NCBI GenBank assembly: GCA_044344145.1 | Contig: JBIJDM010000002.1 | Span: 1-42,186, forward strand | DNA from: Phycisphaerae bacterium | GTDB taxonomy: Bacteria > Planctomycetota > Phycisphaerae > WQYP01 | Length of the DNA stretch: 42,186 nt | Direction of reading: 5' to 3' | In this document: in pieces, positions 4,316-32,339 of the stretch | Numbering within the stretch: position 1 is the first letter of the stretch | How the letters are laid out: the number at the start of each line of letters is the position of its first letter | Translations under genes and position numbers: made by a program | Notes under the pieces: generated by a model | The model's database searches: none | What the model was told of the DNA's origin: nothing | What the model saw: the letters and a program-made list of their open reading frames with translations, nothing else

Positions 4316-4344
4316 GACGAAAAGCCGCAGAATAGGACCCCTGT

Positions 4345-6001: not shown

Positions 6002-6071
6002 GACCGACGCGGCCGTCCCCAAGTCAACGTGTAAACATCCACACCGCAAAGTCCCACTAAAATATCCCTAT

Positions 6072-6107: not shown

Positions 6108-6132
6108 TCGTGGGCATCAATGGTATGGCGAT

Positions 6133-9087: not shown

Positions 9088-9354
9088 ACGTTGGGACCTT
9101 TGGCTCCGGAGGTAACAATCCGAAACCGATCCGAATCAATTTAGCACACGACATCCGCGAAGCGTTATTTCCGGATAAGAACTGTCCGGCACGCTCCGAA
9201 TTCCAACTCGATCTCAGCACGCACTCAGCACGTAATCCGTGCGATATGTTAATTTCACGACTTCGTTGTCGTGTATCCTAAAGCGGCGCATTTTTTCCTG
9301 CAACTACAATGCGCGGGAAAATGTTCAAACCCGCGTTAATTTTCCGGTCCCGGC

Positions 9355-11157: not shown

Positions 11158-11212
11158 GACACGTCTCCATCAACAGCAGGCACAAAGCCTGTCGTTCATT
11201 GCCTGATCATTC

Positions 11213-12520: not shown

Positions 12521-12558
12521 AGCTGCTCCATGCCCTACCGGGCAGCAGGCCTAAATCA

Positions 12559-14532: not shown

Positions 14533-14689
14533 AAAACCTCCACAGGACCGGCATTTACGCTGTCACTGTTAAGAATGGTCAGGAACCGCCGGATCTGATC
14601 TTTTTCGCAGGTCTTGTTGCCGCACAACTCGGGCAGATTTGACAGCCCGCCGCTGGCGGCACGACCAACGGTTCCGATTCAATGCACGC

Positions 14690-14719
14690 TAATAAAACCG
14701 CCAAACGCGAAAACGTCAA
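14690..14719 (-). promoter_or_regulatory. Candidate sigma70-type promoter for the pilus operon
   Basis: On the minus strand: TTGACG (14719-14714), an 18-nt spacer, then TTATTA (14695-14690), about 155 nt upstream of the pilM ATG. This is a sequence match only. Confidence 0.25.
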
Positions 14720-14778
14720 GCGCGGGAGCCGAATCTAGTCCGATATTTTAGCTTTTTTCTGCTGGTCACGGCAGAATA

Positions 14779-15441
14779 TTATTTTACTGCCGTGGGCTTG
14801 ACAGGTGGCCCCAAGGCCGTTTCGAGCGCGGTAACGACCACCGCGTCATCGGGCTTGGTCCGTGAGCCAAACCGGGCCATCAGTTGTCCCTGCCGGTCCA
14901 CCAGAAATTTGGCAAAATTCCACTCGATATCCCCGGCCATGGCGCCGGCGGTGGCCTTTTCGGTAAGAAATTTGTAGACCGGGTGCATTTCTTTACCCTT
15001 GACGGTGATTTTTTCCATCAGTGGAAAGGTCACATCGTAATTGAGGGTGCAAAATTGCCGGATTTCCGCAGGGGTACCGGGTTCCTGGCCGAGAAAATCG
15101 TTGGCCGGGAAGCCAATAATCACCAAACCCCGGTCCTTGTACTTGAGATACAGGGCTTCCAATTGTTTGTATTGCGGGGTCAGCCCGCACTTGCTGGCGA
15201 CATTGACGATTAGCACCACCTGCCCCTTGTGCTGCTTGAGTTCGGAGGGTTTACCCTCCAAATCCCGGACGGTGAAATCCAGCACACTGGGGGCCATCTG
15301 GGTGGTTGCCGGACCGGTAGTTGGAGCGGTGGATGGGGCTTGCACCACGTTACGTCCCGCCGCATAGATTTTGGCCGCAATTAACCCTGCCAAAATTGCC
15401 CCCAGACCCAACCCGCCGTATATAACCCAATGCCGGAGCAT
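14779..15441 (-). CDS. gpx: Glutathione peroxidase family (Cys-type), N-terminally membrane-anchored or secreted
   Basis: The three GPx signature blocks are present: VNVASKCGLTPQY, GFPANDFLGQEPG and WNFAKFLVDRQG. The N-terminus is hydrophobic (WVIYGGLGLGAILAGLIAAKIY). Confidence 0.9.
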   Translation of the reverse strand: MLRHWVIYGGLGLGAILAGLIAAKIYAAGRNVVQAPSTAPTTGPATTQMAPSVLDFTVRDLEGKPSELKQHKGQVVLIVNVASKCGLTPQYKQLEALYLKYKDRGLVIIGFPANDFLGQEPGTPAEIRQFCTLNYDVTFPLMEKITVKGKEMHPVYKFLTEKATAGAMAGDIEWNFAKFLVDRQGQLMARFGSRTKPDDAVVVTALETALGPPVKPTAVK

Positions 15442-15491: not shown

Positions 15492-16745
15492 TTATGTAGT
15501 CAAACCCGTCAAGTGCAGTAATTGGGTAGCCACCGCCGCGGGCGCGTGCCGGGTGGCCAAGAGGGGGCGTTGGATATGCGGTGGTGCGGCCAGACTGGTT
15601 GCGATGGCCCGGGCGAGGTCGGTGGCATTACCACTGGCGAATAATTGCCCCCCATACGACTGCACCCATTCCGGCATAGCGCCCGTGTCCGGAGCCACCA
15701 CCCCCACGCCACAACTCATGGCCTCCAAGGTGGCCAAGCCCCGACATTCCGGGATTCGGCTGGGCACACAAAACACCCGGCTGTGCTGCATGAGTTTGAT
15801 CTTTTCCGACCCGCTGAGTACCCCGTGGTACACCCACGGCCAGCGCTGCTGATCGAGCTTTTTTTGCACTTCCCGCATGTAGGTTTCGTGGCCGATGCGC
15901 CCGGCGATATGCAGGGTGATTTCCGTGCCCTGATCGGCCAAAATGCTGCAGGCATCCACCAGCAAATCGAGCCCTTTGGCGGGTGTAATCGTCGAAAGAT
16001 AGCCAATGGTATTTCCCGCCGGAGCGCTCACCGGGGGTCTGAATTTGTGGGTCGGCACGGGTGGGTATAGGACCTGTATCTGCTCCGGGGGCAGTTGCAG
16101 CCGGGACTGCATCGTTTCGCGGTGCCAGTGGGAACTGGCGAGTGTGCCCGTCACCTGTTTTACGCGAGTGCGTAATAAATCCCACGCCTGCTGACGCCAG
16201 GGGTCACCCAAGGCGTCCAGAAAATGTTCCTCTCCCTGAAGTCCACAGTAAATCGGCACCCCCGGCCAGTCGGGGAGGCTATCCAGCAGCCCCAACAACA
16301 TGCTGTTGCTGATACTCACCAGCCGGGGCACGGGCAGCGTTTTGAGGAATTTGCCGAGGCGCGCGAATTCTTTGGTTTGAAATCCGGCGCGGCCTTGCAG
16401 CATGGAAACCGTCATGGCCCCCAACGAGCGCGGATCGGTGGCGCTGGACCGGCGGGATAACAACCGCAGCAAGAACGAGGCATCCAAACCGCGGGTCAGC
16501 CAGGCCGGCAGGTGGCGGAACAGAGCGCTGGATTGACTCAGATAGACATTCAGCCCGCCCATATACAATGGGGCCAGATTTTCCGGTAACGTGCCGTCGG
16601 TGACCAGCGGGGTATACAACGGAATCAAACAGACATCATAGCCATGCACCTGCAGGGCCTGGGCCAGATATACATCGCGCTGACAGGCGCCGCAATGCGA
16701 TCCACCCGCCCCAGCGGTGAACATGAGTATCAACTCACGAGTCAT
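15492..16745 (-). CDS. GT4/GT-B-type glycosyltransferase-like protein, last gene of the redox operon
   Basis: The C-terminal GT-B motif is VFCVPSRIPECRGLATLEAMSCGVGVVAPDTGAMPEWV (EX7E-like). The start is set at MTRELIL (16745), which overlaps the upstream stop by 11 nt. The track's 20-aa extension lies inside the upstream gene. Confidence 0.75.
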   Translation of the reverse strand: MTRELILMFTAGAGGSHCGACQRDVYLAQALQVHGYDVCLIPLYTPLVTDGTLPENLAPLYMGGLNVYLSQSSALFRHLPAWLTRGLDASFLLRLLSRRSSATDPRSLGAMTVSMLQGRAGFQTKEFARLGKFLKTLPVPRLVSISNSMLLGLLDSLPDWPGVPIYCGLQGEEHFLDALGDPWRQQAWDLLRTRVKQVTGTLASSHWHRETMQSRLQLPPEQIQVLYPPVPTHKFRPPVSAPAGNTIGYLSTITPAKGLDLLVDACSILADQGTEITLHIAGRIGHETYMREVQKKLDQQRWPWVYHGVLSGSEKIKLMQHSRVFCVPSRIPECRGLATLEAMSCGVGVVAPDTGAMPEWVQSYGGQLFASGNATDLARAIATSLAAPPHIQRPLLATRHAPAAVATQLLHLTGLTT

Positions 16746-18273
16746 CCATACCTCCACGCCGCACAATCGCCCCGGTGGGACACACCTCGGCACAGCGGCT
16801 GGCACTATGCGTCAGGGCTTGGGCCCAACTGACCCCCAGCGGAGTCGCTAGATGAAAGGTAAGCCCCCGCCCCGCCAACGTCAAGCCCACGGGCTCGCGG
16901 GCCTGTTTGGTAACTTCCACGCACAAGCCGCAGCCGATACATTTGCTTATATCAATATCCACTTCCGGATGGCTGGTGATCAGGGGTGGGGGAATCTGGG
17001 TGGGGTTGTGGGTGGACCAGCGGGCACCATATTCTTCGGCATAATTCCGCAACCGGCAGGAATCCGCCACCGCGCAACCGCATTGCAGGCAGCGTTGGGC
17101 TTCCAGACTCATGGCCTCGGGGGTGTGGGTGGTGGTGGCCGGGGTCTGGGGGATAACGGTGATATGCGGATGGGGGCGATGAACTGAGAAACGCATAGGC
17201 TTCATGGTCGCTACTGGGTTCACGTGGGCCAGAAAATCGGCGTGAATCTGCTGGGCGGCTTTGCGGCCTTCGGCGAGACCTTTGACGGCCAGTCGCGTGG
17301 GGATGACCATCGCACCAGCGGCGTAAAGCCCGGTGGTCCCCAGCCGGTACGACTGGGTTAGTACCCCCTGCCCGCGCCAGGGCCAGCCATGGGCTTCGGC
17401 CAGCGCGGGAGTCATGGGGCCCAAGGCCAGCAGGACGGCATCGTATTGCCCGCGCAGATCGGCGGTGGTCAATTCGGGCCCGAAGGAGCAACCCAGGCGG
17501 AGTGTTATCCCCATACGGAGCAATACATCCAATTCGGCATCGAGCAGTTCTGGTGGCAGTTCGGCCGGGGGGACATGGGTCCGCAAGGCTCCACCCAGTT
17601 GGGTGGCTTTGTCTATGAGTGTGACGCGGTAGCCGCGCTGCAGGAGTTCGAAGGCAGCGGCCAGACCGGTGGGGCCGGTGCCGACGATGGCAACGGATTT
17701 GCCGGTGTCAGGGGCGCAGGTGGGCGGGCTGATGGGCCCGGAGGCCAGTTCCTGGGCGACCAGGCCGCGCTTCAAAGCGCACACGGCCAGTCCGCCGTCG
17801 TGGGCGCTGCGGTGACAACCTTTGGCACACGGCTCGGGACAAATATGACCTAGCACGCCCGGCAGGGCGATGGTCTGCCGTACCACGGCCAGGGCCTGGG
17901 CAAAGTCGCCCGCGCGGACCCAGCGGGCCACGCTGGGGACATCCATGTGGGCTGGGCAGGCTTGCGTGCAGGGGGCCACACAATCGCCGTAATGCTCGGA
18001 GAGCAGGAGTTCCAGACTCGCCCGGCGCGCGGCGAAGATAGCGTCGCTCTGGGTGGTGATGACCATGCCGTCCGACACCGGATGGCCGCAGGCGGGGATG
18101 AGATGATCCTGTCCGGCGACCTGTACCACGCAGACCATGCAGCAAACCTGGGGCGGGAGTGTGGGCTCGTAGCAGAGCGTGGGAATCGCGATGCCCAGCC
18201 GGGCGGCGGCGGTCACGATGGTGGTCGGTTCGGCAAGGGTGAGAGGTTGGCCATCAATGGTGATATGAATCAT
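16735..18273 (-). CDS. Fe-S flavoprotein: NuoG/HydA-type N-terminal [2Fe-2S] domain, GltD-like FeS/FAD domain, and NuoG-type [4Fe-4S] domains
   Basis: MIHITIDGQ...LCYEPTLPPQVCCMVCVV...PAC is a plant-type 2Fe-2S site as in NuoG. EHYGDCVAPCTQACPAH...ICPEPCAKGC matches the GltD N-terminal FeS region. VAIVGTGPTGLAAAFELLQRGYRVTLIDK...GG is a dinucleotide fold, and LYAAGAM follows. C-terminal FeS motifs are CLQCGC...C and CIGCGLCVEV...RCAEVCPTGAI. The ATG overlaps the upstream stop in an ATGA arrangement. Confidence 0.8.
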   Translation of the reverse strand: MIHITIDGQPLTLAEPTTIVTAAARLGIAIPTLCYEPTLPPQVCCMVCVVQVAGQDHLIPACGHPVSDGMVITTQSDAIFAARRASLELLLSEHYGDCVAPCTQACPAHMDVPSVARWVRAGDFAQALAVVRQTIALPGVLGHICPEPCAKGCHRSAHDGGLAVCALKRGLVAQELASGPISPPTCAPDTGKSVAIVGTGPTGLAAAFELLQRGYRVTLIDKATQLGGALRTHVPPAELPPELLDAELDVLLRMGITLRLGCSFGPELTTADLRGQYDAVLLALGPMTPALAEAHGWPWRGQGVLTQSYRLGTTGLYAAGAMVIPTRLAVKGLAEGRKAAQQIHADFLAHVNPVATMKPMRFSVHRPHPHITVIPQTPATTTHTPEAMSLEAQRCLQCGCAVADSCRLRNYAEEYGARWSTHNPTQIPPPLITSHPEVDIDISKCIGCGLCVEVTKQAREPVGLTLAGRGLTFHLATPLGVSWAQALTHSASRCAEVCPTGAIVRRGGMDDS

Positions 18274-20597
18274 CGGCGCACCGCCGTACTGCCGGACATG
18301 ATGGCAATCGCGTGTTCGGGACAACCGGTCCGGCACAAGTCACACTGGGTGCACAGGTCGAGATTAATTTTGGCTTTTTGGTACGGGAGCAAAGGAATGG
18401 CCTGCACCGGGCAGACCTGTGCGCACTTGCTGCAGCCGATACAGTCGGCGGTGACTTCGTAGTTGATCAGGGCTTTGCATACCCCCGCCGGGCATTGGCC
18501 GTTTTGGTGGGCGGTCCATTCGTCGGGGAAATAGCGCAAGGCGGATAACACCAGCCGCGGTGCATTGCGGCCCAAACCGCACATGCTGGCCTGCTGCATG
18601 TGCTGGCAGATTTGTTGTAGTTGGGCCACGTCGCCGGGCTTGGCGTTACCAGCCACGAAGCCTTCCAGCAGGGAGACCATACGGCGGGTGCCATAACGAC
18701 ACGGGATGCATTTACCGCAGGATTCCGCCGCGCTGAACCGGGCGAAATAGAGGCACAGGTCCAGCATGCAATCGGACTGATCCAGCGCGATGATTCCCCC
18801 GGAGCCCATGATACCGCCCAGCGTTTGCAGGGCTTCGAAGTCCACGGGGACGTGGCAATGTTCCGCCGGGATACAGGCTCCGGAAGGCCCGCCAAGTAGC
18901 ACGCCTTTGAGTTTACCCCCGGCGGCCATACCCCCACCCAGATCGTGAATCAGATCGTACAGGGAGATTCCCATGGGGACTTCCACCAAGCCGGGATGGC
19001 GTAATTTTCCCGCCAGACAGAACACCTTGGTGCCAGGGCTCGCAGCCGTGCCGGTGGCGCGAAATGCGCTTGCCCCGGTGGCGATCAAACTGGGAACCAA
19101 CGCGAGGGTTTCCACGTTATTGACGAGGGTGGGCTGACCATGCCAGCCGGATTGTGCGGGATAGGGAGGCCGGAGGCGCGGCACACCGCGCTGGCCTTCC
19201 AGCGAAGCGATGAGTGCGGTCTCTTCGCCGCAGATGTAAGCGCCCGCGCCGCGCTGCACCCGACAGGGAACGGCGAGCAATTGTTGGGCGTGCATCAGGG
19301 CCAGTGCGGCTTCGATCCGCGCGACGGCCATGGGATATTCCGCGCGAATATAAAAAATAATCGCCGACGCCCCCACCGCGTGCGCGGCAATCTGGGCGCC
19401 TTCCAGCACGCGAAACGGGAAGGACTCGAGCAACATGCGGTCCATGAAGGCACCGGGATCGCCTTCATCGCCATTGACGATGACGACCTTGTCGCCGGGG
19501 GCGGCGGCGACCAAGTCCCACTTGCGGCCACTGGGATAACCGGCCCCGCCGCGGCCGCGCAGACCGGCGGCGGTTACCTCGGTCCGGATCTGTGCGGGGG
19601 TCATGGTTTGCGCTTTGGACCAACCCTGCCACCCCCCGGCCTTGAGGTAACCGGCCCAATCGAGCGGATCATGGGTCCCGGCGGCGGCCATGGCATGGCG
19701 TTGTTGCTTGGCCAGAATCGTGGTCACCGGGCCCGCATGACTGATTTCGGCGGGGGCTGGGGTGTGCGTGCCGGTCAACCAGCGCTGCCCGAGTTGGGCG
19801 GCTTGCGTAAGTACTTTGCGCCAAGGTTGCAGCCGGCCCCGGGCCGCGGCCACGATGCCGGGGATCTGCTCGGGCCGGACCGAACCGAATAATTGTCGCT
19901 GGTCCCCCACCACCACTTCCACCATTGGCGCCGATTGGCACAGACCATTACACGCCACGGTTTGAATACTGATATTGCGCACGCCGCGCAGGGCCTGTTG
20001 CAAAGCTGCGTACAGCGCATCGGTGCCTTTGGCCACACAGCAGGAGTCTAAACAGACGCGCACCTGAACGGGGGCATCCATCGCCAGCATGGGTTTGAGG
20101 TCAATTGCAGCGACGGGTTCCGTCACGGTTTTCAGCAGCGCGGGCAGCGTGCTGGCTGTCTGCGTGCCATAAATCCGCGCGTCGGTTTGAATCACCGGGG
20201 CCATGCTGCAACAGCCCACGCAGGCTACGCCCTCGATGGTAAATTGCCCGGACGCATCAGTATCCGCATCGGGGTCCATATGCAGCAGGCGGCGCAGTTC
20301 CTGCTCCAGACGGCCACTGCCCTGCACATGACAGGCCGTGCCATGACACACACGCAGGATATGCTTGCCGGCGGGACGGCGCCGCCATTGACTGTAGAAC
20401 GAGGCCACACCTTCGATCTGGGCCAAGGGGAAACCACCGACCGCAGCCAGTTCGTGCAGGACTTCATTGGGCAGATAACCCCAATGTTCATGCACGGCCT
20501 GCAGGAGGGGCAAGAGGGCCTCGGGGGCGCGACCCGTTTGGGCAACGCGTTCCTGTAGCCAAGTGGTGATGGTGGGTGCGGTGAGGTCGGGCGTCAT
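18270..20597 (-). CDS. NuoE-NuoF fusion protein with HydB-type architecture (NADH-binding FMN/Fe-S flavoprotein)
   Basis: NuoE 2Fe-2S site: CHGTACHV...CVGCC. Thioredoxin-like 2Fe-2S site: VCLDSCC...CNGLC. NuoF motifs: GLRGRGGAGYPSGRKW, NGDEGDPGAF, YICGEETALIASLEG and ESCGKCIPCRYG...MCGLG. Two C-terminal ferredoxin motifs: CIGCSKCAQVCP and CTQCDLCRTGCP. The start is set at MTPDLTAP (20597), with an ATGA overlap to the upstream stop. The track's 123-aa Arg-rich extension lies inside the upstream gene. Confidence 0.85.
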   Translation of the reverse strand: MTPDLTAPTITTWLQERVAQTGRAPEALLPLLQAVHEHWGYLPNEVLHELAAVGGFPLAQIEGVASFYSQWRRRPAGKHILRVCHGTACHVQGSGRLEQELRRLLHMDPDADTDASGQFTIEGVACVGCCSMAPVIQTDARIYGTQTASTLPALLKTVTEPVAAIDLKPMLAMDAPVQVRVCLDSCCVAKGTDALYAALQQALRGVRNISIQTVACNGLCQSAPMVEVVVGDQRQLFGSVRPEQIPGIVAAARGRLQPWRKVLTQAAQLGQRWLTGTHTPAPAEISHAGPVTTILAKQQRHAMAAAGTHDPLDWAGYLKAGGWQGWSKAQTMTPAQIRTEVTAAGLRGRGGAGYPSGRKWDLVAAAPGDKVVIVNGDEGDPGAFMDRMLLESFPFRVLEGAQIAAHAVGASAIIFYIRAEYPMAVARIEAALALMHAQQLLAVPCRVQRGAGAYICGEETALIASLEGQRGVPRLRPPYPAQSGWHGQPTLVNNVETLALVPSLIATGASAFRATGTAASPGTKVFCLAGKLRHPGLVEVPMGISLYDLIHDLGGGMAAGGKLKGVLLGGPSGACIPAEHCHVPVDFEALQTLGGIMGSGGIIALDQSDCMLDLCLYFARFSAAESCGKCIPCRYGTRRMVSLLEGFVAGNAKPGDVAQLQQICQHMQQASMCGLGRNAPRLVLSALRYFPDEWTAHQNGQCPAGVCKALINYEVTADCIGCSKCAQVCPVQAIPLLPYQKAKINLDLCTQCDLCRTGCPEHAIAIMSGSTAVRR

Positions 20598-23500
20598 GGG
20601 GCCGCCTCCGGGGCGGCTTGCCCTTCCTTGAGGCACCAGAGATGCTTGTCGCCCCGCACATACATCCGCCCCGCCACCAGCGCGGGACCGGCGCGGACAG
20701 GTTCGCCCAGCCGCCAGGTGCCCACTTCGCGGAACGTGTCGGCCATGGCGAAGATATGCACCTCGCCGGCATCGGTGAACCAGTAGACCTGCTTGCCTGC
20801 CAGCACCGGATTGCTGTAGGAATGCTGACCGAAGTCGTGCGTCCAGAGGACTTTGCCATCGGCCAATTGGTAACAGGTGATTTTGCCTTCGGAGGCGAAG
20901 GTTAAGAGCAATTTGCCATCGGTCAACGGGCTGACGGTATCGGGCAGGGACGAATCGCTGCGCCATAATTCTTTGGGCGGTTGGCCGGACGTGGCGGTGG
21001 CGAGATCGAATACCGCTGTGATGGCATTGGCGTTGCTGACGGCCAGATAATTACCCGCTTGTACCGGGGTGGTGGAGACATCGTTGCTCAAAACTTCCAA
21101 GCGCCACAATTCACGCCCGGTCGCCGGGGCGTAGGCAATCACATTGGGGTTCGCACAAGTCAGCAGCGCGGGCGTGCCATCGGCTTGAGTAATCAGGCGC
21201 GGGGTGCTCCACGATCCGCCCATGGTACGGGGCACGCGCCACAATTGCCGGCCCGTCAGCGGGTCCAACGCCAGCAACGCGGACGAAGTGGCGGCATCCT
21301 GATCGTATTGAATAATCAAACGTTCCCCGGCCAACAGCAAACTACTCGCGTAGCCGTAAGCATTATCCACTACCCCCAGCCGTTTTTGCCAGACCTTTTC
21401 ACCGCTGACGCGCACACACACAACTTCACCAGTCGCCCACGTGGCCCAGACATAACGCCCGTCCGTCACCGCGGTGCTGGCGGCGCGAATGGTGGGCTCC
21501 AACACTTTCGGCGGTGGCGTCAGGCCCGGCCAGCTATGCGTCCAGCGCAGATTTCCGGTATCGGCGGCAAAGCACCAGAGGACGTTGGTTTGTTCGTCGG
21601 CGCCGGTCAGGAAGACATCATTACCCCAAACCACGGGGGAACTATCACCACCGAGGGGTAATTCCGCCTGCCAGCGGACTCCGTGACCAACAGGGGCATC
21701 GAATTTGCCCGGCCAGCAGCCGGGGGCGGCCACGCCGTTCATGTCGGGGCCGCGGAATTGGGGCCATTGCTGAGTCCAGATTCTAGCGTCAGGCGGAACG
21801 TATTGGGCGGGTGCGGTGGTGGCCACCGCGACATCGGTTCGCATTACAGGTTGATAAACCACCAGCAAGACCAGCCCCATGCTGACCAACCCACCACCCG
21901 CGCCAATGCCCCAGTAGGTTTGGCGCAGCCATTGGGGCCGTTCGTCGCGGCGTGGCAGACGCAGGTCGGGCAGATCACGCTGGCCACGGCGACCCAGCTT
22001 CCACAATATCACCGTCAGGGTCACCCCGAGTAACAGGGCGCCGCCCGCATTGGTGAAGAAGGTCACCCGCCATTCATATTCCTGACGCAGTTGTACATCG
22101 AGGGTGCGGATTTCCGCACGCAAGGTTTCGGGGTTGGGTGCGGTCAGGAGTTGGGTTTGCAGGTTCGCAATTTGCTCGGTTAGGAGCGGACTTTTCAGAC
22201 CACCGCGCAGATACACCCCCAGCATGAGCAGTGCGAGGATCACGGTGAGTGTCAGGGTGACCATGGCGCTGCGTTGCCAGGCCAAGTGCCGGGGCGGGAG
22301 CGCCACCGGGGCGGACGGGGTACCCAGTAATACCACTTGCGCACCGGGTTCCACGGTCTGGGGGCAATAGTCATAGCACCGGCCACAGGCGAGGCAATCC
22401 GCACTGCTGGCCAGATAATCCGCCTGGGGCTGACCACGCTGATATCGCCACCACCACGCCAGCAGAATCAGCGCCAGGGCCGCGCCTAGAACGGCGGTGG
22501 CGCTTTGCATACGGGTTTGAATCTGCCGGGCGGCGGTGAGTAACAGACCACGGTCTTCACCCAGCGCGGCAAAGGCTGCCATTGCGGTGCCGGGTTTGGG
22601 TAATGCGCCCGGAGTTTGTGCCTCCACCTGCGCGGCCAGTTGCACGGTGGGATGCCACTGGGCGAGTGTCAGTCCACCCCGCCAGCCCAGACCGGCCCAT
22701 ACGAGTACCGCAATCATTCCGCCCAGCAGCCACCAGACCCGCCGGGAGGAGCCGGTGGGGTTCAGCGCTTTTTCTGCGGGTAATTTAATCGCCCCAAATG
22801 GACAACTTTTTTCACACAACCGGCATTGGATACAGGTGGTCGGGGTCACGGTCACCGGCTTGCGGGCCAATGGCCCCAGCGCGCTCAACAGCGCCCCATA
22901 CGGACACAGCCACCGGCAATAGGGCCGACCCACCCACATACTCAGCAGTACAAAGCCCCCCGCCACCAGCAGCATTCCTACCCCCGCGTAACGGCGGAAG
23001 ACCACAACAAAGGGATCGTATTCACAAATCAGCCAGCGCGTGCCGGTGTAGGCGAGAATAAACGCCAAGCCCAAATACACCCACGGCAACAAGCGCAAAA
23101 CCCGGTCCACAGCCACCGGGACGTTCAGCGGTTTGAGCAGGACCAAATCCTGCAAAGCGCCCAGTGGACACACGCCAGCGCAAAACACGCGGCCATAAAA
23201 AAGTGTCCACACCAACGGCAAAGCCACATACACCCCCACCGCCCACGGCAGGGAATATTCCGCCGACCCCAGCGCCAGGGCCACATTCTGCAGACCCCCA
23301 ATGGCACAGACGCAGCCGCCACGATAAAAACCGAAGTACAACACCGAAGCCAGACTCAGCCACGCCAAGCCGGTGCGCTGCCGCCGGGCATGCACCAGCC
23401 AGGTCGCCACCACCATAAACGCCACCAGCATGGCCACATCCAGCACCACCATGCCCGACCAACTTAGCCGCGCCCCGGCGGGTAAATCCGTGGCCGGGAT

Positions 23501-23599
23501 GGTATAGCCGGTGGAAAACTCCGGCGGGGGAAAGCGCGCCTCCGCCCAGAGCGGGAGCGCCGTGGCGAACAAGACGAGGATGGTCAGGAGCTTGCGCAT
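20594..23599 (-). CDS. Fusion protein: NapH/CcoG-like CX3CP membrane polyferredoxin (~10 TM) plus a C-terminal PQQ-like beta-propeller
   Basis: Signal-like N-terminus MRKLLTILVLFATALPLWA. Two CX3CP motifs lie at membrane edges (FCAGVCPLGALQD and YCRWLCPYGALLS). The ferredoxin motifs are CIQCRLCEKSCP and CLACGRCYDYCP. Further TM segments run to about residue 600. From WPQFRGPDMNG (~21766) a propeller follows with repeated tGxxlW strands (TGNLRWTH, TGRQLWRV, TGRELWRL, DGKVLWTH). The start overlaps the upstream stop by 1 nt. Confidence 0.8.
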   Translation of the reverse strand: MRKLLTILVLFATALPLWAEARFPPPEFSTGYTIPATDLPAGARLSWSGMVVLDVAMLVAFMVVATWLVHARRQRTGLAWLSLASVLYFGFYRGGCVCAIGGLQNVALALGSAEYSLPWAVGVYVALPLVWTLFYGRVFCAGVCPLGALQDLVLLKPLNVPVAVDRVLRLLPWVYLGLAFILAYTGTRWLICEYDPFVVVFRRYAGVGMLLVAGGFVLLSMWVGRPYCRWLCPYGALLSALGPLARKPVTVTPTTCIQCRLCEKSCPFGAIKLPAEKALNPTGSSRRVWWLLGGMIAVLVWAGLGWRGGLTLAQWHPTVQLAAQVEAQTPGALPKPGTAMAAFAALGEDRGLLLTAARQIQTRMQSATAVLGAALALILLAWWWRYQRGQPQADYLASSADCLACGRCYDYCPQTVEPGAQVVLLGTPSAPVALPPRHLAWQRSAMVTLTLTVILALLMLGVYLRGGLKSPLLTEQIANLQTQLLTAPNPETLRAEIRTLDVQLRQEYEWRVTFFTNAGGALLLGVTLTVILWKLGRRGQRDLPDLRLPRRDERPQWLRQTYWGIGAGGGLVSMGLVLLVVYQPVMRTDVAVATTAPAQYVPPDARIWTQQWPQFRGPDMNGVAAPGCWPGKFDAPVGHGVRWQAELPLGGDSSPVVWGNDVFLTGADEQTNVLWCFAADTGNLRWTHSWPGLTPPPKVLEPTIRAASTAVTDGRYVWATWATGEVVCVRVSGEKVWQKRLGVVDNAYGYASSLLLAGERLIIQYDQDAATSSALLALDPLTGRQLWRVPRTMGGSWSTPRLITQADGTPALLTCANPNVIAYAPATGRELWRLEVLSNDVSTTPVQAGNYLAVSNANAITAVFDLATATSGQPPKELWRSDSSLPDTVSPLTDGKLLLTFASEGKITCYQLADGKVLWTHDFGQHSYSNPVLAGKQVYWFTDAGEVHIFAMADTFREVGTWRLGEPVRAGPALVAGRMYVRGDKHLWCLKEGQAAPEAAP

Positions 23600-24174
23600 C
23601 AGTCGCCGCGGGCTCCGGTGAGTTGGTTATAGGCTTTATCCGCATCTTTGCGGCTGATGGCCCCGGCGGGGCATTGTGCGGCGATGGCACATTGGTTGCA
23701 CTGCTGACATTCCGCATGACTGATCTGCAGGTACAACGAGCCATTGCCGTAATCCTGACAGCCTTGGACACAGCGGCCGCAGCCGATGCAGCGGTCCCAG
23801 TCAATGGTGTAAGCGTAATACGGGTCTTCGACGCTCTTGCGCACAATCGCATTCACCGGGCACAATTGATTTTCCGCGCCGGTGTTGAATTGCTCGGGCT
23901 TGGGGGTGAAATAACCGGAACAAATATTGCAATAACCACAGGCGGAATAGGCGTGCACACACTTCACCGCGGAGGGGGTTTTGACACAGGCCGAGGCGCA
24001 GCGGCCACAGCGGATGCAGCGGCGCGGATCGATCTGCCAGACTTGGGCGCCTTGCAGGCGCGCGGTACGCGTGGCCAGATAGCCGGCCCCGCCGGCGATG
24101 GTCACCAGCGCGGCGCCGCGCAGAATCCAGTGCATAAATTCGCGGCGTGAGGTGGGCGTGGGTTCGTCTGCCAT
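23599..24174 (-). CDS. Tat-signal periplasmic polyferredoxin, NapG-like (about four [4Fe-4S] motifs)
   Basis: The start is set at MADEPTPTSRREFMHWILRGAALVTIAGGAG, a twin-arginine SRREFM motif plus an h-region. Cys clusters: CIRCGRCASAC, CGYCNIC...CPVNAI, CIGCGRCVQGC and CQQCNQCAIAAQCP. The ATG lies 1 nt after the upstream stop. Confidence 0.8.
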   Translation of the reverse strand: MADEPTPTSRREFMHWILRGAALVTIAGGAGYLATRTARLQGAQVWQIDPRRCIRCGRCASACVKTPSAVKCVHAYSACGYCNICSGYFTPKPEQFNTGAENQLCPVNAIVRKSVEDPYYAYTIDWDRCIGCGRCVQGCQDYGNGSLYLQISHAECQQCNQCAIAAQCPAGAISRKDADKAYNQLTGARGD

Positions 24175-24175
24175 G

Positions 24176-24889
24176 TTACACCTTTCGTCCAAAAACTTTG
24201 ACCACGCCGTGATCCAGGGCATACACCCGCCCCTGGGCATCCACGGCCAACGCTTCTGGTCCAACGCGGGGATCGGTAAAATCTTCCGGTCCGGCGACAA
24301 CTTCCAGTAATTCCCCCGTCATACTGTAAATTTTGATCATCGCGATGATCTTCTGGGCCACGACGATGTGCCCTTCGGGGGTGAAATCCAGCAATACGGG
24401 GTTGCAGCAGCCGGGGAATTGCTCGGTGGCGATGCCGGGCTGGCCCCAGCGCCGGAGCAATTTGCCGTCCGCACTGTACGCCTGTAATTCATGCTGGCCG
24501 GGATTGGTCAGCCAGATTTCGCCGGCTTTGCTGACCCGCACCTGCGCTGGGGCGCGATACACCACCAGCCCCTCGGCCTTGGTAGTCACATCCGGTCCGC
24601 CGAGATGATTGAGAATCTGCCCGTTGGCATCGCGCTGGATAAAACAGCGTCCCGGCGCGTCATACGTGAAGGTATCGGTACTGATCGCCTGAGTCGCGGA
24701 TACTAGCGCCGTGGTGGCGGGTAATTTCTCCAGCAGGACAAACGTACGCCATTTCGGGTCAATGCGGGTATCGGGAATCTGTTTGGGGGTAGGCTCGGTA
24801 TTCTGGGCGTTCTGTTTCAGCAGCACGCCGGTGCCCACCGCCACGACGGCCACGCCCGCGAGGATATACAGCTTTTTGTTATTTTCCAT
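24176..24889 (-). CDS. Membrane-anchored periplasmic NHL-repeat-like protein
   Basis: The start is set at MENNKKLYILAGVAVVAVGTGVLL, an N-terminal anchor. NHL-like units include RWGQPGIATEQFPGCCNPVLLDFTPEGHIVVA...IKIYS and PEALAVDAQGRVYALDHGVVKVF. The ATG lies 1 nt after the upstream stop. Confidence 0.65.
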   Translation of the reverse strand: MENNKKLYILAGVAVVAVGTGVLLKQNAQNTEPTPKQIPDTRIDPKWRTFVLLEKLPATTALVSATQAISTDTFTYDAPGRCFIQRDANGQILNHLGGPDVTTKAEGLVVYRAPAQVRVSKAGEIWLTNPGQHELQAYSADGKLLRRWGQPGIATEQFPGCCNPVLLDFTPEGHIVVAQKIIAMIKIYSMTGELLEVVAGPEDFTDPRVGPEALAVDAQGRVYALDHGVVKVFGRKV

Positions 24890-24890
24890 C

Positions 24891-26318
24891 TCACGGCCCC
24901 TCCGGTAAATCGTAACAGACCATCTCATCAAGATCGCGCACGATCAGGCCCCGGCCACTCACGGCCATGGGAGCCCAGCTTTCATGCCCCTGGAGCAAAC
25001 GCGCCTGGGCCCGCACAGTAAAGCCATCCGGCCGTGCAGCCATGACGGTCAAACGGCCACGATCGTCCAAGGCCCAGAGGCTGTCACCGGCCAGAAAATA
25101 GGGCCCCAGGCCAAAGCGTACCGCGCCGCTGCTCCACTTGCGTGTGGCCGTCAGGGGGTCCAGACAGACCATCTCTCCGCCGGGCACCACGCCGTAGACG
25201 TGTCCATCGTGAGTGATGGGGGTATGTTGCTCGGCGCCGAATTCATTGGCCTTGAAAGTATGCACCCGCTGCACCTGCCAGTGGTCTTCGACCAGCGCGA
25301 GTTTGATGACCTGTGCCCCCGCGCCGTAACCGCCGGCGAGTAGCAGATGATCTTCACCTACCACCACGGGCGAGGCCACGACGGCCTGAGGAATCCGCCA
25401 ACCGGGATAGGTCCATAATAACGTACCGTCGTTACTGATTCCCGCCACGCCGCCGGTGTAACAGGCCACGTACATGCGTTGGCCCGCGAGGGTCAGGGGC
25501 GTCAGACTGGCATGGGTCTGTTCCCATCCAGCCAATTCCGCCGGGGCATCCAACTGCCAGAGCACCTTGCCGGTTGAAGGGTCCAAGGCCAGCATGAGCA
25601 CCTTGCCCCCGACGGCGACGAGTAATTTGCCATCATCCGCCAGCAAGCATTGACCCGCATACCACTCTGGCACGCGCGCCTGATATTGGGCGCATAAATC
25701 CAAGCCCCACAAATAAGCCCCAGACTTTATATCCACCGCCATCAGATGTAATTTCGGCCCCAGCGTGATGACCACATCCCCCACCACCATCGGCACGGTG
25801 CGCGATACGCCGTGATTGCTTTTGGTCTTGAGCGTGTAACCCCGCCGCCAGAGTTCCTGGCCATCGTGGATATTCCAGCAGCGCAGGACATCCCCGCCGG
25901 TGTTCTGCCACTTGGGATCGTAATCCAGCAGCATGACGCGTCCCTGCGCCACCACCGGCCCGGCATAGCCCGGCCCGAGCATGGGCACCCGCCAGCGGAC
26001 CTGAGGACCGGCGCTGGGCCAATGGTAGGACAGTGCTTCGGAGTGTACCCCATCGCGTAATGGCCCCCTGAAGCCGGGCCAGAGCGGTGTGACGGCGGGG
26101 TCCGCGCTGGCAAAGGTCTGTAAGGTGCCGGTGATATCCAGCGGCTTTTTTCCCGCCCCATCGGCAACACCTCCATCCAAGCCCGGCACCCGCAGAGCGG
26201 GCGCAGGTCGGGAAGATTGCCATACCAGTGCCACCATGGCCAAAGCACAAGCCAAACCGACCACCAGTGGTATCCCGTACGGCGCGAAGCGTAATTGGCG
26301 CGTGGGCATCCGTAACAT
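24891..26318 (-). CDS. Membrane-anchored PQQ-like (BamB-family-like) beta-propeller protein, first gene of the redox operon
   Basis: N-terminal anchor IPLVVGLACALAMVALVW. LWPGFRGPLRDG is followed by repeated propeller strands (DGQELWRR, SGAYLWGL, TGKVLWQL, DGTLLWTY). There is no SD, which is consistent with a near-leaderless start. Confidence 0.8.
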   Translation of the reverse strand: MLRMPTRQLRFAPYGIPLVVGLACALAMVALVWQSSRPAPALRVPGLDGGVADGAGKKPLDITGTLQTFASADPAVTPLWPGFRGPLRDGVHSEALSYHWPSAGPQVRWRVPMLGPGYAGPVVAQGRVMLLDYDPKWQNTGGDVLRCWNIHDGQELWRRGYTLKTKSNHGVSRTVPMVVGDVVITLGPKLHLMAVDIKSGAYLWGLDLCAQYQARVPEWYAGQCLLADDGKLLVAVGGKVLMLALDPSTGKVLWQLDAPAELAGWEQTHASLTPLTLAGQRMYVACYTGGVAGISNDGTLLWTYPGWRIPQAVVASPVVVGEDHLLLAGGYGAGAQVIKLALVEDHWQVQRVHTFKANEFGAEQHTPITHDGHVYGVVPGGEMVCLDPLTATRKWSSGAVRFGLGPYFLAGDSLWALDDRGRLTVMAARPDGFTVRAQARLLQGHESWAPMAVSGRGLIVRDLDEMVCYDLPEGP

Positions 26319-26326: not shown

Positions 26327-26355
26327 ATTTTAATGTCTTATTTTGTTATTTCCAA
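26327..26355 (-). promoter_or_regulatory. Candidate sigma70-type promoter of the leftward redox operon (near-leaderless)
   Basis: On the minus strand: TTGGAA (26355-26350), a 17-nt spacer, then TAAAAT (26332-26327). Only 8 nt separate the -10 hexamer from the ATG at 26318, and there is no SD. Confidence 0.35.
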
Positions 26356-26370
26356 GTTTTTAGGTATCAT
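26343..26370 (+). promoter_or_regulatory. Candidate sigma70-type promoter of the rightward propeller/ABC operon
   Basis: TTGTTA (26343-26348), a 16-nt spacer, then TATCAT (26365-26370). Its -35 element is back-to-back with the -35 of the leftward promoter. The region is AT-rich in an otherwise GC-rich genome. Confidence 0.3.
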
Positions 26371-26398
26371 CAGGCTACATTTTATGAAAGGTTTAACC

Positions 26399-27622
26399 AT
26401 GCGACGGATGGGATTGGCCGTATTAACTACACTCGCGGTGGTCTCTTTGGCCCCGGTTTACGCCGCTTGGCCGCGCTATTTGGGCCCGCAAGGCAATGGT
26501 TTTGCCGATGATGTGGGGATCAACAAAGACTGGAACAACAAAGCGCCCAAGAAGCTGTGGACCATGCCGTTATCGGATAATGGCTATGGCGGGCCGATCG
26601 TGGCCGATAAAAAAGTATTCATCATGGACCACACCGGCGGCGGTGGCGGTCAGGATGTCATCCGGGCATTGGATTTGGAAACCGGGAAACAGGCATGGGA
26701 ATTCGCCTTTGTCTCCAAGGGCAGCAAAGACAATTATGGTTTTACCCGTCCGAGTCCCTGTTATGCCGGGGGGATGCTGTACATCTCCGGCAAAATGGGT
26801 GAGATTGCCTGTCTGGATGCCAATACCGGCAAGGGGGTGTGGGAAAAACATTTGGTGAAAGACTTCGGCGGCAATCCCCCCAAGTGGGAATTTTCCGCCT
26901 CCCCGGTCGTGGATGAAGACCGTCTGCTCATTCAGCCCGGGGGCAAGACTTCGCTGGTCGTGCTGAACCGTAAAGATGGCAAGACGATCTGGCAGGGACC
27001 GGCATCCAATGGTTCGGCGGGTTATGCCGCCCCGGTCAAAGCCAAAATCGGCGGCGTGGAGCAGTACGTCATCATGACGGATGCCGAATGTTGGGGTCTG
27101 GATTACAAGACCGGGGCCAAGCTCTGGAGTTTTGAGTGGAAAACCAATTTCGGCGTCAACGCCTGTGTGCCGATTGTGATCGGCGATCAGGTATTGGTCT
27201 CCAGCGGTTACAACATGGGCACCGGGTTATACCAGATCACCGATAACAAAGCCACGCAGGTGTGGTTCACCAACGAGGCAAAATCGCGTTTCAGCACGCC
27301 GATCTACCATAATGGCTTTGTTTACAGCACCGGCGATCAGAAAACCCTTGCGTGTTTGGATATCAAGAACGGCAAGCCTGTATGGACGGTCAAGGGTTTT
27401 GAGTGGGGTGGTCTGCTGGCGGCCGATGGCACTTTGATTGTGATGGATGCCAAGACCGGCGCGCTGGTGCAATATGCCCTGGACGGCACGGCGGCCAAGG
27501 AACTAGGCCGGATGGAAAAACCGGTTGGCGGCAAGAATAACTTCTGGACCGCTCCGGTACTCAGCGAAGGTCGGCTGGTCCTGCGCAGCCCGGTGGAACT
27601 GGCCGTCTACGATTTGAAATAA
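26399..27622 (+). CDS. Secreted PQQ-like beta-propeller protein
   Basis: Signal peptide MRRMGLAVLTTLAVVSLAPVYA|A, then WPRYLGPQGNG, then repeated strands TGKQAWEF, TGKGVWEK, DGKTIWQG, TGAKLWSF and NGKPVWTV. The start at 26399 is chosen because AAAGG lies 7 nt upstream. ATGs at 26384 and 26333 are alternatives. Confidence 0.8.
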   Translation: MRRMGLAVLTTLAVVSLAPVYAAWPRYLGPQGNGFADDVGINKDWNNKAPKKLWTMPLSDNGYGGPIVADKKVFIMDHTGGGGGQDVIRALDLETGKQAWEFAFVSKGSKDNYGFTRPSPCYAGGMLYISGKMGEIACLDANTGKGVWEKHLVKDFGGNPPKWEFSASPVVDEDRLLIQPGGKTSLVVLNRKDGKTIWQGPASNGSAGYAAPVKAKIGGVEQYVIMTDAECWGLDYKTGAKLWSFEWKTNFGVNACVPIVIGDQVLVSSGYNMGTGLYQITDNKATQVWFTNEAKSRFSTPIYHNGFVYSTGDQKTLACLDIKNGKPVWTVKGFEWGGLLAADGTLIVMDAKTGALVQYALDGTAAKELGRMEKPVGGKNNFWTAPVLSEGRLVLRSPVELAVYDLK

Positions 27623-27638
27623 GTCCGCAAGGAACCCC

Positions 27639-28304
27639 ATGCTAACCTTGCACGCGGTCAGTAAGAGTTACCCCACGCCGCAAGGCGCACTGGCGGTATT
27701 GGATGGGCTGGACGCAGTATGGGGACCCGGCACGTATGCACTGATGGGCGCATCGGGTTCGGGCAAGAGCACGCTGCTGAATCTGATTGCGGGACTGGAC
27801 ACCCCCACCGCCGGGGAGATTCGGTTTGAGGGGACGGCATTAGCCAGCTACACCGCAGCCCAAATGGATGCCTATCGGGCGCGGACCATCGGACTGTTGT
27901 TTCAAGAGCATCATTTACTGGGTCATCTCACGGCGCTGGATAATGTGCTGCTGGCCACGCTGGCGGTGGATGCCCCACAACCCCGCGCGGTGGCGCTGGA
28001 ATTATTGGCGGAGCTGGGGATTGATCGACGCATGGCCTTTGCCTATCCGCACCAACTCTCCGGCGGGCAGTGCCAGCGCGTCGCGCTGGCTCGGGCCCTG
28101 ATCAATCAGCCACGCATGTTACTGTGCGATGAACCCACCGGCAGTCTGGACGCGGCCACCGCCCGGCAAGTCGCCGCGACGATTACACAAATCGCCCAGC
28201 GCCGCGGCCTGATCGTATTGGTCGTCACGCATAATCCCGATCTGGCCGCCCTGATGCAGCAACGGTATCACCTGGCGGATGGCCACCTGACGCGACAGAC
28301 CTAG
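27639..28304 (+). CDS. ABC transporter ATP-binding protein (LolD/MacB/FtsE-like)
   Basis: Walker A GASGSGKST, Q-loop LLFQEH, signature LSGGQCQRVALARAL, Walker B MLLCDEPTGSLD and H-loop VVTHN. Confidence 0.95.
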   Translation: MLTLHAVSKSYPTPQGALAVLDGLDAVWGPGTYALMGASGSGKSTLLNLIAGLDTPTAGEIRFEGTALASYTAAQMDAYRARTIGLLFQEHHLLGHLTALDNVLLATLAVDAPQPRAVALELLAELGIDRRMAFAYPHQLSGGQCQRVALARALINQPRMLLCDEPTGSLDAATARQVAATITQIAQRRGLIVLVVTHNPDLAALMQQRYHLADGHLTRQT

Positions 28305-28313
28305 GAGTATGCG

Positions 28314-31277: not shown

Positions 31278-31280
31278 ACC

Positions 31281-32339
31281 TTGCGTTACGCTGGTTATAT
31301 CTGCGGATTGGCCCTGCTCCTGATTATGGGGGTCTGGGCCGCTGCGCCCACGCCTCCGACCACCCGACCACTAAAGCCGGAAATCGTCTGGTCACAAAAC
31401 TTTGGCAAACGACTGAAAGCCACGCCGGTCATGACGCCGGCCGGGCTGATCCTGCCCACCGATGCGGGACAGGTCCATTTGCTTGATCCCGCCACCGGCA
31501 AGCCGATCTGGTCCGCCCCCGTCGAGGGCAGCGCGGGGCAGGCGACCTGCACCGACAAGCTGGTTTATCTGGGCGATGAAGATGGGTTCATGCGTTGTCT
31601 GGACCTCGCCACCGGCAAAGAGCGCTGGCAATTCGCCACCCAGCAAACCATTGTCGGCGCCCCGCTGTTGGCGGATGGCCGGCTCTACTTTGGCTCGTAT
31701 AATCACAAGGTCTATGCGGTGGATGCCGTCACGGGCAAGGAGCTTTGGAGCTTTACCACCGATGCGGAAGTACATGCCCCACCCCGGCTGGTGGACAATA
31801 TGCTGCTGGTCGGGGGCTGCGATGGCTTTGTGCGGTGGTTGGATCCGGCCACCGGCAAGGAAGTGCAGCAATACAAGCTTGGACAGAATGTCGCCAGTGC
31901 TCCACTGATTGATACCAGCGTCAAACCCCCACTCGTGGTGGTCGCGGGCATGACCGGCCAAGTGACCGCCCTGACGGCAGCGGATAAAGTGCTCTGGCAA
32001 TTTGATCTGAAAAAGAAAATCCAAGCCGACCTGATTGCCCTGCCTGATGCGGTGGGTTTGTATACACTGGATGGGTTGTTTATGGTCCTCAATCGCGACA
32101 CCGGCAAGACGCTGGCGCGGTTCAAACTCGAGGACGGCGAACGCTGTGCCCCGCTCCTCACCGCCGATACGATCTATCTGATCGGCGATAACGAGCTTAA
32201 TGCACTGAACCTGAAAACCTATAAGAAACGCTGGGATTTTAAACTTACCGGCCAGCCGCTGGCCACCCCCGCCATCACACCCGAGGCGCTTTATATCGCG
32301 CAGGAAAACGGCACGCTGATCAAGCTGCGTTTGCCCTGA
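31281..32339 (+). CDS. Secreted PQQ-like beta-propeller protein
   Basis: TTG start with GGAG 6 nt upstream, 3 nt after the permease stop. Signal peptide MRYAGYICGLALLLIMGVWAAA. Repeated strands are TGKPIWSA, TGKERWQF, TGKELWSF, TGKEVQQY, DKVLWQF and YKKRWDF. Confidence 0.8.
   Translation: MRYAGYICGLALLLIMGVWAAAPTPPTTRPLKPEIVWSQNFGKRLKATPVMTPAGLILPTDAGQVHLLDPATGKPIWSAPVEGSAGQATCTDKLVYLGDEDGFMRCLDLATGKERWQFATQQTIVGAPLLADGRLYFGSYNHKVYAVDAVTGKELWSFTTDAEVHAPPRLVDNMLLVGGCDGFVRWLDPATGKEVQQYKLGQNVASAPLIDTSVKPPLVVVAGMTGQVTALTAADKVLWQFDLKKKIQADLIALPDAVGLYTLDGLFMVLNRDTGKTLARFKLEDGERCAPLLTADTIYLIGDNELNALNLKTYKKRWDFKLTGQPLATPAITPEALYIAQENGTLIKLRLP

Follow-up and report, generated by a model that had tools for sequence, protein, structure and literature searches.

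In the structures of the NfnABC and StnABC complexes, two members of the HydABC/NfnABC (Bfu) family of electron-bifurcating enzymes, electrons follow the path NADPH-FAD-A7-A6-A3-A2-A1-[B1-FMN-C1]-B3-B4-ferredoxin (NfnABC and StnABC structure papers), and both papers regard the Fdh-like domain of the A subunit as a non-functional side branch. The survey of the Bfu family lists hydrogenase, Nfn, Fdh, F420, Wor, Bam, Codh, Por, Mbh, Nuo and rubrerythrin types, with no NapH or propeller type, and leaves 17-18 of its 57 clades unassigned. Here we describe a pair of genes whose products have NfnABC and StnABC as their closest sequence and fold matches. They lie on the minus strand of a 42,186-nt stretch of Phycisphaerae DNA (contig JBIJDM010000002.1, assembly GCA_044344145.1), referred to below as the window, and encode a 775-residue NuoE-NuoF fusion and a 512-residue protein combining parts of NuoG and GltD. 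The pair is most likely an input module for NADH (possibly for NADH and ferredoxin) that serves a NapH/NapG-like transmembrane conduit, a reading based on synteny. Taken together, the trimmed module and its constant membrane and exported neighbours point to an undescribed route for electrons across the cell membrane. The literature searched contained no account of the cluster.

The 775-residue protein (18270..20597) is the fused BfuC-BfuB core of the HydABC/NfnABC family with all its cofactor sites intact, as judged by Pfam, PDB matches, invariant ligands and the ratio of non-synonymous to synonymous substitution (dN/dS). Pfam recognises 2Fe-2S_thioredx in two stretches, Complex1_51K, SLBB, NADH_4Fe-4S and a C-terminal dicluster Fer4 domain. 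The NuoE/BfuC part (residues 1-160; 20118..20597, minus strand, as are all the domains of the pair) is assigned the [2Fe-2S] cluster C1 (C84, C89, C126, C130) by Pfam and the ortholog alignment. It is followed by the thioredoxin-like N-terminal domain of BfuB (residues 178-255; 19833..20066), which is the second 2Fe-2S_thioredx stretch and holds the invariant B5 ligands C186, C187, C216 and C220. The NuoF core (residues 311-700; 18498..19667) has the FMN/NADH motifs, the B1 [4Fe-4S] site (C627, C630, C633, C673) and the Bfu His/Cys3 site (C610, H697, C702, C707), and the C-terminal ferredoxin domain (residues 712-765; 18303..18464; Fer4_21/Fer4_7) supplies eight invariant Cys for the two [4Fe-4S] clusters B3/B4. 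All of the C1, B5, B1, B3/B4 and His/Cys3 ligands are invariant in 10 orthologs from four phyla. The His/Cys3 residues align to C438, H525, C531 and C536 of 7t2r_B, ie they form the His-containing B2 site, which in the family takes Zn or a 2Fe-2S cluster and here has Val at its variable fifth position (C476/T). That His occurs in virtually all bifurcating B subunits and is absent from non-bifurcating homologues (Schut et al. 2022).

Against the PDB, the 775-residue protein scored 504-522 bits with the B subunits of the Nfn-Bfu/Stn group (9bov_B, 522; 9n5u_B and 8oh5_B), 454-480 bits with HydB (7t2r_B also matched), 342-357 bits with FdsB and approximately 240-306 bits with complex I subunits. 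In a neighbour-joining tree of the NuoF core, ten proteins from the cluster formed one clade among the Nfn, Stn and HydB types, far from Escherichia coli NuoF, and the neighbour of this clade was the B subunit that accompanies a long form of the 512-residue protein in Victivallaceae (L022). The tree has no support values and E. coli NuoF as its sole complex I outgroup, and is offered as supporting evidence only. An affiliation with complex I was rejected on the scores, the signature residues, the tree and the lack of nuo genes in the window. Compared with the complex I N-module (NuoEFG), the folds are homologous and the NADH/FMN site and first iron-sulphur (FeS) clusters are shared, but the scores are much lower, there are additional Bfu domains, and both the nuoA-N genes and the C-terminal domain of NuoG are lacking. 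With HydABC and HydABCSL the protein shares the BfuBC core (FMN, B1, His/Cys3, B3/B4, the N-terminal thioredoxin-like domain and C1), whereas neither an H-cluster nor a NiFe partner is encoded in the window. An earlier note, made from the DNA sequence of the window, had called this protein a HydB-type NuoE-NuoF fusion, a description that the scores, the His/Cys3 site and the grouping with Bfu rather than respiratory complex I proteins uphold. The NuoE 2Fe-2S site, the NuoF FMN/NADH and 4Fe-4S motifs and the two C-terminal ferredoxin motifs that it listed are real, with Pfam matches and invariant ligands, and its coordinates were exact. The additional thioredoxin-like site that it read at VCLDSCC also exists; C182 in that motif is specific to the window and is not conserved, the ligands being the four given above.

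The 512-residue protein (16735..18273) is, by its sequence, a cut-down A subunit of the NfnA/StnC type, reduced to the electron wire and the ADP-binding half of the flavin domain. This short BfuA-like assignment draws on Pfam, PDB matches, a structure model and dN/dS. Pfam gives Fer2_4, Fer4_20, a single NAD_binding_8 (residues 196-235) and a C-terminal NuoG-type ferredoxin domain. The NuoG/HydA-type [2Fe-2S] domain (residues 1-95; 17989..18273; Fer2_4) has the four A1 ligands C34, C45, C48 and C62, invariant in 20 family members, and the GltD-type domain (residues 96-185; 17719..17988; Fer4_20) would hold the two [4Fe-4S] clusters A6/A7 (C98, C102, C106, C145, C149, C153, K168). Within the latter, C106, C145, C149 and K168 make up the Lys-ligated [4Fe-4S] site that adjoins the flavin in Nfn-Bfu/Stn enzymes (A7/C7), K168 being the equivalent of the Lys ligands NfnA K170 and StnC K170 of the NfnABC and StnABC structure papers. 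Next comes a single Rossmann domain of the FAD type (residues 186-345; 17239..17718; NAD_binding_8), with GTGPTG at residues 198-203 and LYAAGA at residues 316-321. The C-terminal ferredoxin domain (residues 386-512; 16738..17118; Fer4_Nqo3/Fer4_15) aligns to residues 559-673 of 9bov_A and carries invariant Cys for A2/A3 in two [4Fe-4S] motifs, C395/C398/C400/C406 and C445/C448/C451/C498. The best PDB matches of the protein were Caldicellulosiruptor NfnA (9bov_A, 268 bits), Thermococcus NfnA (9n5u_A) and Sporomusa StnC (8oh5_C), and its AlphaFold (AF2) model (pLDDT 83) matched the same three over its whole length with a Foldseek TMq of 0.77-0.79.

The alignment with 9bov_A pairs query residues 2-288 with target residues 4-289, resumes at query residue 307 and target residue 458, and stops at target residue 673 of 1178, ie the 512-residue protein is without approximately 170 residues in its middle and 500 at its C-terminus. 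In alignments with 9bov_A and with long relatives the NADPH-binding Rossmann subdomain was not found; at the site where the long forms have this subdomain, of 130-170 residues, there is a short linker (residues 285-306; 17356..17421). Two long relatives (P0068 and P0112) have an insertion of 130-146 residues immediately after query residue 285, and it is this that holds the second dinucleotide motif, GxGxxA (VVVIGDGNEAIDAARSALRLGA). The Fdh-like C-terminal domain with clusters A4/A5 is absent too, the protein ending at the equivalent of 9bov_A residue 673. A second dinucleotide fold is encoded neither in the gene nor elsewhere in the cluster, and the two-fold pattern of GltD, NfnB and SudA is not seen. 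Loss of the NAD(P)H-binding subdomain had been suspected in the earlier note, and in alignments with proteins of the GltD/NfnB type the NADPH Rossmann insertion is indeed cleanly missing. The N-terminal 2Fe-2S site, GltD FeS region and single dinucleotide fold that it reported are all found by Pfam, but the C-terminal NuoG-type domain with its two [4Fe-4S] motifs had been overlooked. The NuoG/GltD chimera that it described has the already known architecture of NfnA and StnC, closest relatives that it had not recognised, and the unusual part is the domain loss, which extends to two domains, the Fdh-like one included, and not one.

Relative to NfnABC and StnABC (9bov, 9n5u, 8oh5), then, the window pair has the same B-subunit domains and ligands, C-type [2Fe-2S] subunit, A-subunit FeS set with its Lys ligand, and flavin-type Rossmann fold. 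It differs in the two missing domains, in the G-I-P-x-x-R motif and the aspartate of the GD motif, which are not conserved, in the fusion of the C and B subunits, and in an operon that includes membrane and periplasmic proteins. A long form of the PRK12814/NF009454 type (approximately 660-700 residues) shares the N- and C-terminal FeS domains and likewise has no Fdh-like domain, but unlike the window protein it keeps the second Rossmann fold, and in Firmicutes and others its gene comes behind individual genes for NuoE and NuoF. This long form, as a 657-residue model, is the best match of the window protein in NCBIfam, at 335 bits against a cutoff of 916, and the short form has no name in any curated family.

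A word-indexed search with the 512-residue protein returned 764 matches. Among the best 120 of these, 117 were 500-580 residues long and 115 were aligned over at least 95% of the query at 35-43% identity. An exhaustive search of representatives at 50% identity gave 127 proteins of 470-600 residues among the 148 newly fetched of the best 150, and 112 of the 127 have exactly one dinucleotide motif. The short form is a family and not a product of decay, with at least 125 clusters at 50% identity that have the same length and architecture in several phyla. When 117 short sequences were compared with 18 long ones, C98, C102, C106, C145, C149 and C153 were 100% conserved and K168 was 89% conserved in both groups, and the ADP-binding GxGxxG/GG motifs, with GG at residues 227-228, were invariant, as was D/E221. 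By contrast, G-I-P-x-x-R is at least 94% conserved in the long forms and only 21-46% conserved in the short ones, and the GD aspartate is replaced by N, S, G or A in most short forms. The window protein itself has THVPPAE for GIPxxR and AAGA for the GD motif, a departure from the Nfn-Bfu/Stn pattern in its FAD pocket. The Arg of GIPxxR corresponds to StnC R239, which is required for activity (Stn paper). Selection acts on the Rossmann domain, yet the constraints tied to hydride transfer from NADPH to the flavin have disappeared. With invariant ADP-binding motifs and relaxed residues on the isoalloxazine side, the domain may have kept or lost FAD. Public labels for the genes of the cluster include 'glutamate synthase', 'FAD-dependent oxidoreductase', '(2Fe-2S)-binding protein', 'RnfB' and 'BamB family'.

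Some variants of the short form were also observed. Three are rare metagenomic fusions, one of which (P0249; L089, 1690-5091) lies downstream of a NuoEF gene and combines the short form with a ferredoxin and a full GltD-like module, NADPH fold included; the others (P0277 and P0339) join it to a URO-D-like domain or to NuoE. A diverged 507-residue homologue in a Victivallales metagenome-assembled genome (MAG; L026, 10001-11524) has 30% identity and no Rossmann motif detected by Pfam, and no NuoEF or NapH-like gene is found nearby.

The two genes overlap through an ATGA, and on a contig with 88% identity a gene caller run independently gave the same lengths. Open reading frames (ORFs) of 533 and 898 residues, listed mechanically, are upstream extensions of the 512- and 775-residue genes. 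The 898-residue frame (18270-20966, minus strand, start at 20966) runs open into the end of the upstream gene, and the gene itself starts with the ATG at 20597. In a comparison with the 88%-identical relative, dN/dS was 0.069 for the 512-residue gene, 0.079 for its Rossmann domain alone and 0.074 for the 775-residue gene; values were 0.07-0.08 across every gene tested, the flavin domain included.

The pair occurs in a conserved gene order: a PQQ_2 propeller, an NHL protein, a ferredoxin of approximately 190 residues, a NapH-like protein, a membrane-anchored PQQ_2 propeller, the NuoE-NuoF fusion and the short GltD. The last is often followed by a further propeller, a GT4 glycosyltransferase, an ABC ATPase of the LolD/MacB type and an FtsX permease of 1000-1100 residues. 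The run NapH-like, propeller, NuoEF, short GltD was found in 12 of the 12 loci with enough flanking sequence (L001-L005, L007, L009, L010, L029, L085, L087 and L088), and in a Bacteroidota MAG cut at its 5' end (L008) the order is the same from the propeller onward. Carriers of the syntenic arrangement are Thermostilla marina, with the two records L001 and L002, an Aminicenantes genome, three Bacteroidota MAGs (L008 being one), three Prolixibacteraceae, a Draconibacterium, a Limisphaerales MAG and a 908-kb contig, so that the order spans Planctomycetota, Verrucomicrobiota, Bacteroidota and Aminicenantes. The long forms with the NADPH domain, mostly from Firmicutes, had no NapH-like, ferredoxin, NHL or propeller gene of the window type nearby by tblastn, and are preceded by separate NuoE and NuoF genes. 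In the window, neighbouring genes overlap by 1 nt (ferredoxin/NapH-like), 4 nt (NapH-like/NuoEF), 4 nt (NuoEF/GltD) and 11 nt (GltD/glycosyltransferase), with ATGA, ATGA and TGATG junctions. A few loci have features of their own. In the Limisphaerales MAG (L087, 16535-16981) an IS200-type transposase gene lies between NuoEF and the short GltD. On the 908-kb contig (L088) the short GltD is split over two reading frames (15862-17398), possibly by a frameshift or an assembly error, and divergent genes for squalene-hopene-cyclase-like, radical SAM, prenyltransferase and polyprenyl synthase proteins (412-6504) lie just upstream of the cluster.

The NapH-like integral membrane polyferredoxin (22280..23599, minus strand) makes up residues 1-440 of a 1001-residue ORF and was recognised by Fer4_5, by TIGR02163 (napH) below its cutoff, by invariant Cys, and by hydropathy and charge. 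Besides its Fer4_5 repeats it has two each of the motifs CX3CP and CxxCxxCxxxCP, and the loops that hold them are rich in Lys plus Arg (10 and 5 residues) and predicted to be cytoplasmic. These features fit the topology of NapH, with FeS clusters that would face the cytoplasm. A PDB sequence search with this part returned generic ferredoxin motifs only and no solved relative. After its last helix, as placed by hydropathy and charge, comes a membrane-anchored PQQ_2-type beta-propeller (20594..22279, minus strand), supported by Pfam and synteny. The two are a single ORF (20594-23599, minus strand) in the window and the 88%-identical relative, and two adjacent genes in the other phyla examined. 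Upstream is a NapG-like ferredoxin (23599..24174, minus strand; profile matches and conservation) with a twin-arginine translocation (Tat) signal (SRREF); its 16 invariant Cys fall into four motifs and fit four [4Fe-4S] clusters. Its family comprises 4409 clusters at 90% identity (E<=1e-8), and the best 120 are 52-62% identical to it, except for one near-copy at 98%. The NapG-like and NapH-like neighbours score below cutoff with PRK09476 and TIGR02163, though both show the features of NapG and NapH. The window resembles NapGH, NosGH, MauMN and NosR in its Fer4_5 repeats, two CX3CP motifs, two predicted cytoplasmic [4Fe-4S] clusters and Tat-exported four-cluster ferredoxin, but has no nitrate reductase, N2O reductase or amine dehydrogenase partner, and adjoins a cytoplasmic NADH module instead. 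No association with NapAB/NapC, NosZ or MauAB was seen in the window or the related loci examined. We know of no description of such coupling to a cytoplasmic NADH module for NapGH. As the earlier note had remarked, there is no hydrogenase or formate dehydrogenase partner; no such domain was present in any ORF scanned across the window.

On these grounds we favour, with a probability of roughly 0.6, the view that the pair belongs to a conserved electron-transfer system spanning the envelope and is its cytoplasmic arm, an NADH module that feeds the NapH-like conduit. All elements of the NfnABC/StnABC electron path other than the NADPH site are kept in the pair. NADH would be oxidised at the FMN of NuoEF, and electrons would then run through B1, A1, A2, A3, A6 and A7 (and perhaps a flavin), ie along the NfnABC path in reverse. 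A membrane protein would take the place of NADPH, so that electrons would pass from the A subunit to the cytoplasmic [4Fe-4S] clusters in the NapH-like protein encoded just upstream, and would continue to the Tat-exported four-cluster ferredoxin and the periplasmic propeller and NHL proteins. The docking site is likely to be the surface bared by loss of the NADPH subdomain or of the Fdh-like domain. Purifying selection acts on the entire bifurcation core, which makes it probable that the module continues to couple NAD(H) to a low-potential partner such as ferredoxin at B3/B4. Such confurcation, the least secure step of the scheme, would give electrons more reducing than those of NADH alone. 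A fuller version, which might be called 'NapH-Bfu', is tentative and in our estimate has well under an even chance: it would be a new class of Bfu enzyme with the cell exterior as its third substrate, and in several phyla the Bfu core would join NADH and reduced ferredoxin and drive low-potential electrons through the NapH-family protein to the periplasmic polyferredoxin, for reductive chemistry by the propeller and NHL proteins, which have no recognisable cofactor. The earlier suggestion that the module had been re-purposed to feed the membrane polyferredoxin gains support from the strict NapH-like synteny in four phyla and the overlapping start and stop codons; physical coupling is what we infer from these. 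The module would be of the Bfu family with a new, membrane-linked partner, its Bfu core being already known.

Several observations weigh against a NADH-fed conduit of this kind. Its link between the soluble module and the NapH-like protein is drawn from synteny and translational coupling, and we likewise infer the direction of electron flow. The flavin may be lost or used differently, because the flavin-ring residues (GIPxxR and the GD aspartate) are relaxed in the short family. Neither the invariant-residue lists of the propellers nor the model of an NHL ortholog gives evidence of a redox cofactor, so that the chain lacks an evident periplasmic terminus. Other settings of the short form also exist, namely the Victivallales orphan and the fusion variants. 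Finally, the classical role of NapH-type proteins is that of quinol dehydrogenases, so the route may lead electrons by way of the quinone pool and not straight across. An extension of this last point is that the system is a non-bifurcating alternative NADH:quinone oxidoreductase, in which the NapH-like protein reduces quinone, the exported ferredoxin belongs to a quinol dehydrogenase of the NapGH type, and the extra Bfu clusters are structural. The NapH and NapG families are indeed annotated as quinol dehydrogenase subunits, and some Bfu homologues (complex I, FdsABG) do not bifurcate. We nevertheless think it improbable, as neither the Bfu-specific His nor any ligand of B3/B4 or B5 varies between phyla, and Schut et al. 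report that non-bifurcating homologues lack this His.

Reversal of the flow is about as doubtful. The periplasmic proteins would then oxidise a low-potential donor, and the exported ferredoxin and NapH-like protein would deliver electrons to a Bfu core that bifurcates onto NAD+ and ferredoxin, in the manner of Bfu enzymes linked to hydrogenase, formate or NADPH. Bfu enzymes are reversible, the A subunit is the entry for a mid-potential donor in most characterised members, and the complete bifurcation core is conserved. However, no cofactor that could take electrons from a donor near -400 mV is recognisable in the propeller and NHL proteins, and PQQ-type chemistry has a potential far too positive to reduce NAD+. 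It is decidedly unlikely that the pair acts as a free soluble diaphorase or NADH:ferredoxin oxidoreductase whose neighbouring membrane genes reflect shared regulation only. The pair does lack a membrane segment, and the short-form orphan (L026) and fusions exist in other contexts, but the order is strict in 12 of 12 loci from four phyla and never seen with long forms, and start and stop codons overlap. A remaining role as an Nfn-type transhydrogenase, with NADPH bound by the surviving Rossmann fold or by a partner in trans, is very improbable. In its favour is the metagenomic P0249, where the short form is fused to an entire GltD-like module that has an NADPH fold, but a second dinucleotide fold is encoded neither in the gene nor in the cluster, and the Arg needed in StnC (R239) is not conserved. 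Moreover, an acidic residue at the end of beta-2 disfavours binding of the 2'-phosphate, and the one at that position (D/E221) is invariant. As for a decaying remnant of an NfnABC operon, or a pseudogene, the absence of two domains relative to NfnA/StnC is what would suggest it; dN/dS of 0.07, the invariant cluster ligands and the conservation of length and architecture across at least 125 clusters at 50% identity rule it out for practical purposes.

To our knowledge, the electron source for the cytoplasmic-side FeS clusters of membrane proteins of the NapH, NosR and RdhC type has never been identified. The strict linkage of a NapH-like protein to an NADH-oxidising module offers a concrete candidate for the cytoplasmic donor of NapH-type proteins. 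If true, 'NapH-Bfu' would provide the cytoplasmic FeS clusters of NapH/NosR-type proteins with a redox partner in the cytoplasm, the first to be identified, and the Bfu family would gain a membrane or extracytoplasmic partner. The short GltD is also a natural experiment on the GltD fold, with the NADPH domain gone and the FeS wire kept. The system is abundant yet unnamed, with more than 4,400 clusters of the exported ferredoxin at 90% identity, in four phyla.

The system in the window goes beyond what the earlier note covered: the Tat-exported ferredoxin, several propellers and an NHL protein belong to it, as do a glycosyltransferase and an ABC transporter. The NHL-type propeller protein (24176..24931, minus strand; Pfam, conservation and the ortholog model) has an invariant vicinal-Cys GCCNP motif. 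It is approximately 80-120 residues shorter than its orthologs (315-373 residues), at least one of which has an RR Tat-like N-terminus. The ortholog model (pLDDT 85) is six-bladed, and its structure matches were only generic NHL propellers (TRIM2, Thin and Brat). The first gene of the operon encodes a membrane-anchored PQQ_2 beta-propeller (24891..26318, minus strand; Pfam and synteny). The invariant-residue lists of the propellers contain Cys pairs and no obvious metal site or redox cofactor. At the other end, the GT4 glycosyltransferase (15492..16745, minus strand; Pfam) has orthologs in the cluster of L003, L004, L009, L010 and L029, which trail it in Aminicenantes and Bacteroidota. Its invariant CxxC (C38 and C41 of a 437-residue ORF) lies within an N-terminal glycine-rich motif, and an EX7E signature is also present.

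A second arm (26333..32339, plus strand) is divergent in the window and co-linear with the cluster in L003, L008, L009, L010, L029 and L088. It encodes a PQQ_2 protein (26333-27622), an ABC ATPase of the LolD/MacB type (27639-28304), an FtsX-type permease of 987 residues (28314-31277) and a second PQQ_2 protein (31281-32339), all on the plus strand. The divergent start codons, at 26318 and 26333, are only 14 nt apart. The rest of the window (1233-15441 and 32346-39328) contains no tRNA genes, and encodes an aldo/keto reductase, a GTP-dependent phosphoenolpyruvate carboxykinase, RecO, a secretin, PilM with unannotated ORFs of the pilus region, glutathione peroxidase, a methyltransferase, the glycine dehydrogenase GcvP and an HlyD-like protein. 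In a search of sequencing runs the sequence was found in lake-water metagenomes only, and no RNA runs were among those containing it. Proteins with 96-98% identity carry the label Phycisphaerae. The G+C content is 0.62-0.64 over the cluster (16000-26000 and 28000-32000), compared with 0.56-0.59 in the flanks and 0.57 in the 26-28 kb bin.

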